NCBI GenBank assembly: GCA_024400815.1
Contig: JAKSMD010000001.1
Coordinates: 31,310 to 95,309 of the forward strand
Source: Bacteroidales bacterium
Lineage (GTDB): Bacteria > Bacteroidota > Bacteroidia > Bacteroidales > WCHB1-69
Direction of reading: 5' to 3'
Length of the DNA stretch: 64,000 bases
Below the pieces are notes generated by a model, which did not search any database, was not told where the DNA came from, and saw only the letters and a program-made list of their open reading frames with translations. Positions 36,508 through 37,695 of this stretch are shown piece after piece. The position numbers and the translations under genes were made by a program. Within the stretch, counting starts at the first letter, position 1, and each line of letters begins with the position of its first letter.

Positions 36508-36515
36508 TATTTTTG
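36508..36515 (+). promoter_or_regulatory. -7 box TAnnTTTG (tatttttg) for the T5orf172 gene
   Basis: Perfect motif 20 nt upstream of the ATG at 36535. It lies inside the track ORF N-terminal extension, which argues for the 36535 start. Confidence 0.6.
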
Positions 36516-36534
36516 CGGTTCAAAAAAAGATGCT

Positions 36535-37695
36535 ATGAAAGAAATAGTCTATCGTGATTCTGATTATGTGCTTGAAAATCCCAAAACCAAATATTCAGTA
36601 TATACTGTTGAATATAGAACTTATTTAGAACATTGGTCTAAGAACGCAAAGTCCCGTGTACGAAAAGGTGATGCAGTCGGTCAACTGAAACGTATATGGT
36701 ATCATTCAATAGATGGAAAATTAAAAGAAGAGATCTCATCAGAAGTGTTTAGCATTCATTCTCCGCATAAAGGGTTCTTTATTCCTGTCTTGTTGAATTT
36801 TGACCGACATCCAATTTCTGAGGGCCAAGAACTGTTCAAAATCTATGAATACAAGGACGAACTGTATCATTCATATTTTGAATGGAATATATCCAAGATT
36901 GAATTGACAGGTGAATACAAAATCAATTGGGAATTGGTTGACGGCCGCACAAACGACTATATGCGTCTATGCTCTGGGAGTCCATCTTTTTCATTGAACA
37001 TACGGAATGGTAAACCTGTCATATTCTTTCGGACAGAAACAAAGTACAAAGTGGGTTCAACACTGGCGGTGAAATTTCAAGTGTCTTTTTCCAAGTCAAT
37101 AATTAAAAGATACCAAATAACTAAAAAAACACATGTGTTCAAAAATTCGGCAAAAGATTACGAAACTGATTTTGAACTTACGAAAGCAGATATTGACTAT
37201 TTCATTCTACACCAAGCCACATCGTTTGGGATAATTTTTACTGACGGTCGGGAACCTGAGGTTTTTGATGTTCCCAGTGTTTTTCATAGGGAGATGATTC
37301 AATATTTTTTCAAGAACTTCAAAAACGCCCTGTTGAAGATAATTGAAAAATCACCCGCAGCAGTAGAGTTTGCGGAAGAAGCACAACCCCAAACGGCAAA
37401 ATCAAAGGAGATGGTGATAATAACAAGTGAACCAGTGTATGTTTATCTGATGAAAGACAAGGCTAACGGGTATTGTAAGATTGGAATATCAAACAAGCCC
37501 ACGTTCCGCGAACGCACATTGCAAAGTGAAAAACCCACTGTCGAAATGCTAGCTTCGCACAAATACCCTTCAAGAGCTGTCGCATCTGCCATTGAGACAG
37601 CATTGCACACCTTGTATGCCGAAAGCAGGGTGCGTGGCGAATGGTTCAATCTTACCCCAGAGGATGAAGCCGTGGTGATTGCGACGCTTGAATAG
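36535..37695 (+). CDS. T5orf172 (GIY-YIG superfamily) domain protein with a novel N-terminal region
   Basis: The C-terminal ~90 aa read VYVYLMKDKANGYCKIGISNKPTFRERTLQSEKP...AIETALHTLYAESRVRGEWFNL, matching the T5orf172/MUG113 pattern. The N-terminus carries a lipoyl-like VRKGDAVGQL...IHSPHKGFFIPVLLNFDRHPISEGQELFKI. Confidence 0.75.
   Translation: MKEIVYRDSDYVLENPKTKYSVYTVEYRTYLEHWSKNAKSRVRKGDAVGQLKRIWYHSIDGKLKEEISSEVFSIHSPHKGFFIPVLLNFDRHPISEGQELFKIYEYKDELYHSYFEWNISKIELTGEYKINWELVDGRTNDYMRLCSGSPSFSLNIRNGKPVIFFRTETKYKVGSTLAVKFQVSFSKSIIKRYQITKKTHVFKNSAKDYETDFELTKADIDYFILHQATSFGIIFTDGREPEVFDVPSVFHREMIQYFFKNFKNALLKIIEKSPAAVEFAEEAQPQTAKSKEMVIITSEPVYVYLMKDKANGYCKIGISNKPTFRERTLQSEKPTVEMLASHKYPSRAVASAIETALHTLYAESRVRGEWFNLTPEDEAVVIATLE

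Follow-up and report, generated by a model that had tools for sequence, protein, structure and literature searches.

The question raised by this locus is what is encoded by a gene (positions 36535 to 37695, forward strand) that lies beside an insertion sequence (IS) in an AT-rich island of a Bacteroidales genome and ends in a nuclease domain also common among phages. The stretch of DNA analysed, referred to here as the window, comprises 64,000 nucleotides (nt) of contig JAKSMD010000001.1 (positions 31,310 to 95,309 of the forward strand; assembly GCA_024400815.1). An original prediction, made from the letters without database searches, had described the gene as an orphan fusion of a lipoyl-like motif, an unrecognised middle region and a T5orf172 domain, and as a candidate nuclease-type defence or selfish element. 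The 386-residue product was found to belong to a family of Bacteroidota proteins in which a T5orf172/MUG113 domain of the GIY-YIG clan, well conserved between members, follows two far less conserved domains. The interpretation tentatively favoured here is that of a nuclease acting in genetic conflict, probably in defence.

Domains of the protein and extent of the family

The C-terminal or C domain (residues 296–386; 37420 to 37692, forward strand) was matched by the Pfam profiles MUG113 (PF13455; E = 8.9e-11, 42.7 bits compared with a gathering cutoff of 22.3) and T5orf172 (PF10544; E = 2.6e-7, 31.5 bits compared with a cutoff of 20). Placement of the last 90 or so residues in this branch of the GIY-YIG superfamily, as proposed originally from a string now located at residues 302–373, was thus upheld above both cutoffs. 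The two profiles were also matched by all 45 relatives in the family alignment (A1), and PHROGs of endonuclease and homing-endonuclease type matched the same C-terminal stretch. Within the domain, 31 columns of A1 were invariant, including Y304, K315-I316-G317, R325, E326, H358 and R367-G368-E369-W370, and the GIY-YIG-type core (i.e., a Tyr in strand 1, x-I-G in strand 2, an Arg, and a Glu before W-F) was kept. From the order of these motifs, Y304, R325 and E369 are the putative catalytic residues (compare PMC8263062). The AlphaFold model of the domain superposed on phage T5orf172, MUG113 and GIY-YIG proteins of about 90 residues (Foldseek search of BFVD) with a root-mean-square deviation of 2.8–3.6 Å and a probability of 1.0. 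T5orf172 is a GIY-YIG subfamily, of which the ICP1 protein Odn keeps the conserved Arg and Glu and requires the latter for nuclease activity (PMC8263062, PMC10448857); the window protein is likewise predicted, by homology, to be a nuclease.

The full-length AlphaFold2 (AF2) model (predicted local distance difference test score, pLDDT, 88.3; predicted template-modelling score 0.70) indicated three units. The first of these, the N domain (residues 21–104; 36595 to 36846, forward strand), is modelled as a barrel that resembles the barrel-sandwich hybrid fold of lipoyl/biotinyl domains (PF00364; L2 domain of pyruvate dehydrogenase (PDH) E2) and has, as in those domains, the motif order V.KGD.L...AP..G, extended in A1 to AP..GY. 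The corresponding segments of the window protein, VRKGDAVGQL (residues 42–51) and IHSPHKGFF...FKI (residues 74–103), had both been pointed out previously, although their spacing proved to be 22 residues and not the 30 then given. In a Foldseek search of the PDB, the top matches by probability were the inner lipoyl domain of PDH E2 (3crk_C; probability 1.0, template-modelling (TM) score by target 0.67) and 1y8n_B (probability 1.0, TM score 0.57), at weak E-values of 0.04–0.1. The Biotin_lipoyl profile (PF00364) gave no match in the window protein at E ≤ 1 and weak matches in the relatives P0198 (3.4e-5) and P0224 (8.5e-4), while a third relative matched Biotin_lipoyl_2 at 0.0038. The hairpin bracketed by KGD.L and AP..GY varies in length and sequence across A1, with no conserved column, so that the impression gained from the single sequence that a modifiable Lys is lacking extends to the alignment, in which no Lys is conserved there. 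Nor is the context that of an acyltransferase or carboxylase. The N domain is probably lipoyl-like in terms of fold resemblance and is not a cofactor-carrying domain.

The second unit, the M domain (residues 105–247; 36847 to 37275, forward strand; pLDDT 93), is β-rich with one short helix and is marked across the family by the motifs D.FT...I.W, KGD..S.LF and L...DI..F......RI. No solved analogue was detected by Foldseek in the PDB (nothing at E < 1e-3; TM score ≤ 0.33), and this middle region, described at the outset as matching nothing recognisable, gave no match in Pfam, NCBIfam, PHROG or PDB sequence searches. PDB sequence and profile searches with A1 and a second alignment, A2, likewise returned nothing significant, and no housekeeping family was matched by the N-terminal region in Pfam or NCBIfam. 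The possibility that M is a duplicate of N was rejected on the basis of an hhalign probability of 6.9%, over a 16-column KGD motif. Secondary structure and pLDDT values indicated that M is joined to the nuclease domain by a long α-helix (residues 249–272) and a low-confidence linker (together 37276 to 37389, forward strand).

The description of the gene as an orphan fusion was not borne out. A search with the full-length protein returned 455 matches at E ≤ 1e-3, many of them Bacteroidales and Flavobacteriales proteins of 360–400 residues that aligned from about residue 30 to the end with approximately 30% identity. A sequence search with residues 1–290 gave only a 99% identical twin, owing to a word-index limit, and a profile of the M domain, used instead, retrieved 504 representatives from 1.84 billion clusters. 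The gene thus represents a fixed architecture of three domains that is common to hundreds of Bacteroidota proteins, which databases label only as GIY-YIG nuclease family protein. When 255 family proteins were parsed with hidden Markov models of N, M and C, 167 had the N+M+C architecture and 80 had M+C; M was thus paired with the same nuclease domain in 247 of the 255. The C domain was absent in eight, six of which were short proteins (253–309 residues) that appeared truncated. One protein without C (P0144, 610 residues) contained two M-domain matches, and in another (P0232, 899 residues; positions 3423–6122 of L167) N+M was joined to FtsK_alpha and an FtsK/SpoIIIE translocase instead of the nuclease. 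Genes for an MmeI_N fragment, Pentapeptide_3 and DUF6602 were noted next to the latter. N-terminal transmembrane helices were predicted in 21 of the 255 proteins, and about 8% carry transmembrane helices or DUF805; the window protein has no signal peptide and no transmembrane helix (no hydrophobic 19-mer).

A different picture was obtained from viruses. Of 80 viral relatives on IMG/VR contigs, 79 carried the C domain alone in proteins of 117–450 residues and one had the full architecture; the viral-contig C domains were 42–60% identical to that of the window protein. Isolate phages were matched by the C domain only, and a tblastn search of plasmids gave no match. These results indicate that the three-domain architecture is a chromosomal feature of Bacteroidota, the nuclease domain being shared with phage genes. 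Neither the gene nor a 35-nt repeat that flanks it (see below) had an exact DNA match in viral contigs, a metagenome scan gave no close relatives, and exact-protein look-ups returned single-gene catalogue records only.

Allele replacement beside nifJ and exchange of the window copy

Conservation was distributed unevenly along these proteins. Thus, identity to the window protein across the family was 55–67% for the C domain compared with 15–25% for the M domain. The same asymmetry was seen at close range in a hotspot of rumen Bacteroidales, where an intact nifJ (PFOR) is followed directly by the family gene in nine loci and a short 3'-terminal stretch of nifJ precedes it in five more (L001, L004, L011, L012 and L024; the short stretch in L004 and L011 may reflect a contig end only). 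Among L007, L009 and L015, NifJ was 99% identical and the C domain 90–95% identical, whereas N+M was only 34–53% identical. In a nucleotide comparison of L007 with L015, identity was 95–97% through nifJ, fell to 51–65% just past the nifJ stop codon, returned to 89% over the final 150 nt of the family gene and was lost altogether beyond that. Such a sharp drop at the end of nifJ and recovery at the end of the gene point to allele replacement as opposed to gradual divergence, and the conserved nuclease-coding segment may have served as one recombination arm. Abi and AAA_15/AAA_21 defence-type genes lie alongside the family gene at this site, and homologues in general were found in variable islands and not in conserved core synteny.

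An additional arrangement was noted in L001, L012 and L024, as well as in L002 and L021, where fragments of nifJ occur on both sides of a unit formed by the family gene and an AAA_15/AAA_21 ATPase gene, with no intact nifJ upstream. The fragments correspond to the last 40 or so codons before the family gene and to residues 842–964 or 1004–1178 after the ATPase. Island turnover seems to have dragged along or duplicated the 3' end of nifJ.

Evidence of exchange was also obtained for the window copy. A block extending from 35565 to 37889 was 98–100% identical to Logan contig L081 and included the right end of an IS, a lipoprotein gene (p166), the family gene (P0001 in L081, 99% identical) and 194 nt of 3' flank. 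The adjacent gltD-like core gene was only 73–87% identical between the two. Comparison of the block with the core gene next to it indicates that a cassette of at least 2.3 kb, present at the same site in both, was exchanged recently between diverged genomes. The left end of the exchanged block is not delimited, as the L081 contig stops within the IS. The element in question (34669 to 35720, reverse strand) consists of a DDE_Tnp_1 transposase open reading frame (ORF; 34691–35644, 317 residues) between 27-nt inverted repeats that are 81% complementary, and is situated 0.8 kb upstream of the gene, where an IS had been suspected. The same IS is probably repeated in the L081 genome, since the L081 contig ends within its right end.

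The gene is also enclosed by an imperfect 35-nt direct repeat, with a left copy at 36326 to 36360 and a right copy at 37828 to 37862 (both forward strand), 27 nt short of the end of the identity block with L081. The copies match at 29 of 35 positions, compared with a peak of 25 in 1000 shuffles of both spacers. Flanking repeats around single family genes were likewise present in L032 (132 nt), L049 (47 nt), L051 (53 nt) and L077 (80 nt), and Rfam searches of the repeats at these other loci identified one tRNA only, in L077. In that locus, the direct repeat (2081–2160 and 3217–3296, 89% identical) flanks a 281-residue family gene and consists of the last 21 nt of the tRNA and 59 nt of downstream flank, in the manner of an att duplication, with no integrase between the copies. 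The flanking repeats may be insertion scars, att-like sites or repeated terminators.

Neighbouring genes and sequence features of the window

The gene immediately upstream in the window, p166 (35762 to 36262, forward strand), encodes a predicted lipoprotein of 166 residues (signal peptide followed by LSSC) and travels with the family gene in the L081 block. No Pfam or PADLOC match was obtained for p166, and a search of 5.8 billion proteins gave no homologue except its twin. A gene for a 36% identical lipoprotein, interrupted by an in-frame stop, was noted in L022, tail-to-tail with a family member that has a transmembrane anchor. Other loci had no p166-like neighbour, so that the pairing occurs in two of 81 loci, and in different orientations. 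These two cases hint that the p166-type lipoprotein is a facultative partner.

Immediate neighbours were scanned in 80 species-level loci, from which 126 proteins were collected. Ten of these were AAA_15/AAA_21 ATPases (PADLOC models PD-T4-4_A, down to 6e-87, PDC-M29A and HEC-02A), four were Abi_C (AbiJ-like) proteins and three were Schlafen proteins (SLFN_AlbA_2); AIPR, Abi_2 and SLATT_5 were represented once each, and two neighbours were integrases.

The window gene is an intact reading frame with its stop codon ending at 37695. Its start codon was taken to be the ATG at 36535, since the longest form of the reading frame, from a TTG at 36484 (403 residues), would engulf two promoter-like boxes and since the 99% identical gene in L081 was called from the same ATG. 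The TTG form, the N-terminal extension of which lacks a charged n-region, was accordingly rejected. The boxes, both of the Bacteroidota −7 type (TAnnTTTG), were read from the sequence in tandem at 36500 to 36515 (forward strand), one at 36500–36507 and the other, TATTTTTG, at 36508–36515 with its end 19 nt before the ATG. Position 36508, given originally as the beginning of the gene, is thus the first base of a promoter-like box and not a start codon; the perfect −7 box reported 20 nt upstream is indeed present. TAnnTTTG occurs 66 times in the window with both strands counted (0.5 per kb), and a box is by itself weak evidence of a promoter. In keeping with a promoter element of Bacteroidota, boxes were found as well upstream of both neighbouring genes (the gltD-like gene and p166). 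Guanine plus cytosine (GC) content was 33–39% across 35.5–38 kb compared with 45–54% in the flanks, and the AT-rich island is therefore real, although the average for the gene is about 37% and not the 33% estimated by spot count.

On the left, the low-GC island begins with an ORF of 238 residues (33591–34307, 30–32% GC) that had no Pfam or PADLOC match and no homologue in the loci fetched; its edge adjoins a gene of about 50% GC (31900–33453) for a 517-residue protein with AAA-ATPase_like and PDDEXK_9 domains and no PADLOC match. On the right, the gltD-like fusion gene (DHODB_Fe-S_bind, Fer4_20 and Pyr_redox_2; 38081–40326) is split in the window into overlapping ORFs (38081–39046 and 38923–40326) and is a single gene of 749 codons in L081. 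The split, which bears out the earlier impression of decayed genes as far as disrupted reading frames are concerned, may reflect a frameshift, a pseudogene or an assembly indel. Similarly, a gene of the HI0933-like/DUF8436 type (41438–43000) is divided (41438–42769 and 42788–43000) where L081 has one gene of 517 codons, and two apparent frameshifts so close together (within 5 kb) point either to indels introduced during assembly or to genuine decay. Between these genes, an rfbB-like ORF (40340–41392), which by eye we take to encode a dTDP-glucose 4,6-dehydratase, occupies the place of a gene for a 605-residue AAA/AAA_lid_6 protein in L081 (4810–6627), another replacement. Between the HI0933-like and YkuD_2 genes, L081 lacks an insert of about 1.1 kb and low GC content (36%) that in the window carries DUF3990, DUF3791 and a 76-residue ORF (43057–43978, reverse strand) and thus forms a second, small variable island. 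Another T5orf172-like match, a weak one obtained by tblastn at 61805–61996 of the window, fell within an ORF of 792 residues for a protein of outer-membrane type and was judged to be due to chance.

Defence, homing and other possible roles

The interpretation that we favour, tentatively and at slightly less than an even chance, is that the family consists of single-polypeptide conflict nucleases, most likely defensive ones directed against phages or mobile elements. The protein would be a soluble nuclease carried on horizontally exchanged cassettes, with the T5orf172 domain as its conserved catalytic part and with the long helix and flexible linker as a tether to a two-domain β module (N+M). 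This front module would provide specificity or act as a sensor, rapidly replaced or diversified between strains; by recognising a component of the invader, it could position the nuclease or license it to cut DNA. A defensive role is preferred because of the hypervariability of the front end even where the locus is the same, the presence of Abi and ATPase genes among the neighbours, the restriction of the full architecture to cellular genomes, the occasional membrane anchors and the parallel with SNIPE/PD-lambda-1, a membrane-bound GIY-YIG defence nuclease of E. coli (PMC13190303). Like the present family, SNIPE combines in one polypeptide a variable N-terminus, a middle domain, a helix and a C-terminal nuclease, with conservation highest in the GIY-YIG domain and variability greatest in the N-terminal region (PMC13190303); N-terminal transmembrane helices, as noted above, are present in a minority of the family. 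In contrast with SNIPE, DUF4041 was matched by none of 55 members scanned (10 long and 45 aligned relatives), nor by the window protein at E ≤ 1, the window protein has no transmembrane helix, and the family M module is β-rich whereas the DUF4041 of SNIPE has been described as a central coiled-coil (PMC9519451). The window protein is thus a member of the T5orf172/MUG113 group and not of SNIPE. Its only PADLOC match at E ≤ 1 was to PDC-S57 (5e-5), which is also a single-gene candidate with a T5orf172-type domain; the match covered profile positions 4–90 (87 of 212) and residues 299–382, i.e., the nuclease domain only, and the remainder of the two proteins is unrelated. GIY-YIG-type conflict nucleases made of one protein are known; for the N+M module of the present family there is no Pfam model and, by Foldseek, no analogue solved in the PDB.

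Several observations weigh against a defensive role. No PADLOC system model was matched beyond the nuclease domain, and no known sensing or DNA-binding fold was detected in N or M (residues 1–295) in Pfam, PHROG, PDB or Foldseek searches. The defence-gene neighbours are concentrated in the one rumen-Bacteroidales nifJ hotspot and are not independent, their numbers being raw counts, and the window copy itself adjoins an IS, a lipoprotein gene and a core gene, with no recognised defence gene by PADLOC. The island and exchange context accords with the original suggestion of a nuclease-type defence or selfish element, for which the argument is one from context, and the position at an island edge, the identical cassette in divergent genomes and the flanking repeats fit a selfish nuclease of homing type as well. 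Such a nuclease would cut an allele lacking the gene beside a core gene, repair would copy the gene, and sometimes its neighbours, into the site, and an exchange boundary would thereby be made or maintained. The best-studied T5orf172 genes are in fact phage homing endonuclease genes (HEGs), located close to essential genes and at the limits of genetic exchange (PMC10448857), and the free-standing phage HEGs and ICP1 Odn share with the present family the same Pfam nuclease domain, the combination of a nuclease with an exchangeable specificity domain (PMC10448857, PMC8263062) and a location at the edge of exchanged DNA beside conserved genes. The family gene forms the edge towards a core gene at nifJ and likewise in the window, with the boundary at 37889 falling 194 nt beyond the stop codon. 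Genomes of about 78% identity carry, at the same site, a cassette that is 99% identical. Flanking direct repeats occur in the window and in L032, L049, L051 and L077, and 3' fragments of nifJ travel with the cassette in L001, L012 and L024. However, a site-specific HEG should keep its recognition part, whereas N+M diverges widely where NifJ is nearly invariant, and the DNA-binding folds that are recognisable in the partner domains of the phage proteins (117–450 residues, without N and M) were not detected here. The family is moreover chromosomal and restricted to Bacteroidota, its full architecture being found in one of 80 viral contigs and in no isolate phage or plasmid; no empty site was seen, among collections in which scans yielded no close relatives, and some members are membrane-anchored. 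Homing is accordingly regarded as unlikely, albeit the strongest competitor of a defensive role.

A more speculative proposal is also a distinctly less probable one. In this proposal, the family would be the chromosomal counterpart of phage HEG islands, with the nuclease as the constant edge gene of hotspots adjacent to core genes (the 3' end of nifJ; the 5' side of gltD); cutting would drive turnover of the DNA behind it, defence genes included, and its own hypervariable front end (the lipoyl-like barrel and the β-rich domain) would be swapped by way of the nuclease-coding homology arm. Still less weight is given to a facultative two-gene module in which p166 would cooperate with the nuclease, perhaps as a sensor on the envelope side or as an immunity factor. 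Movement of p166 and the gene together in a 99% identical block would suit such a module, as would the 36% identical lipoprotein gene tail-to-tail with the L022 family gene when p166 is otherwise without homologues, but pairing in so few loci, with differing orientations and an in-frame stop in the L022 copy, argues against it, and direct contact with p166 is not obvious for a nuclease that has neither signal peptide nor transmembrane helix. Equally improbable is a domesticated T5orf172 protein that binds DNA without catalysis (a regulator, compare PLE CapR) or a housekeeping factor of DNA repair. Pfam and UniProt do name T5orf172 a DNA-binding domain, and a domesticated endonuclease of a phage satellite is reported in a preprint (10.1101/2020.11.28.402263), yet 45 of 45 aligned members keep the Tyr, Arg and Glu of the putative catalytic core, which makes a non-catalytic role unlikely. 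A housekeeping function, for its part, is at odds with the sporadic, island-borne and horizontally exchanged distribution of the gene, which is not that of a core gene, and with the lack of a housekeeping match in NCBIfam.

The consequences differ between these readings. If the front module is a sensor, the family would be an uncharacterised group of single-gene immune nucleases in Bacteroidota, a phylum where tests of defence systems have been few, with a design convergent with that of SNIPE. The nifJ-adjacent site would then provide a natural panel of alleles for mapping specificity, alike in locus and nuclease but not in front end. If instead the selfish reading is correct, homing-type nucleases would shape the boundaries of chromosomal islands outside phages. 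Whichever reading is true, the current database label hides approximately 290 residues of conserved, unannotated architecture.

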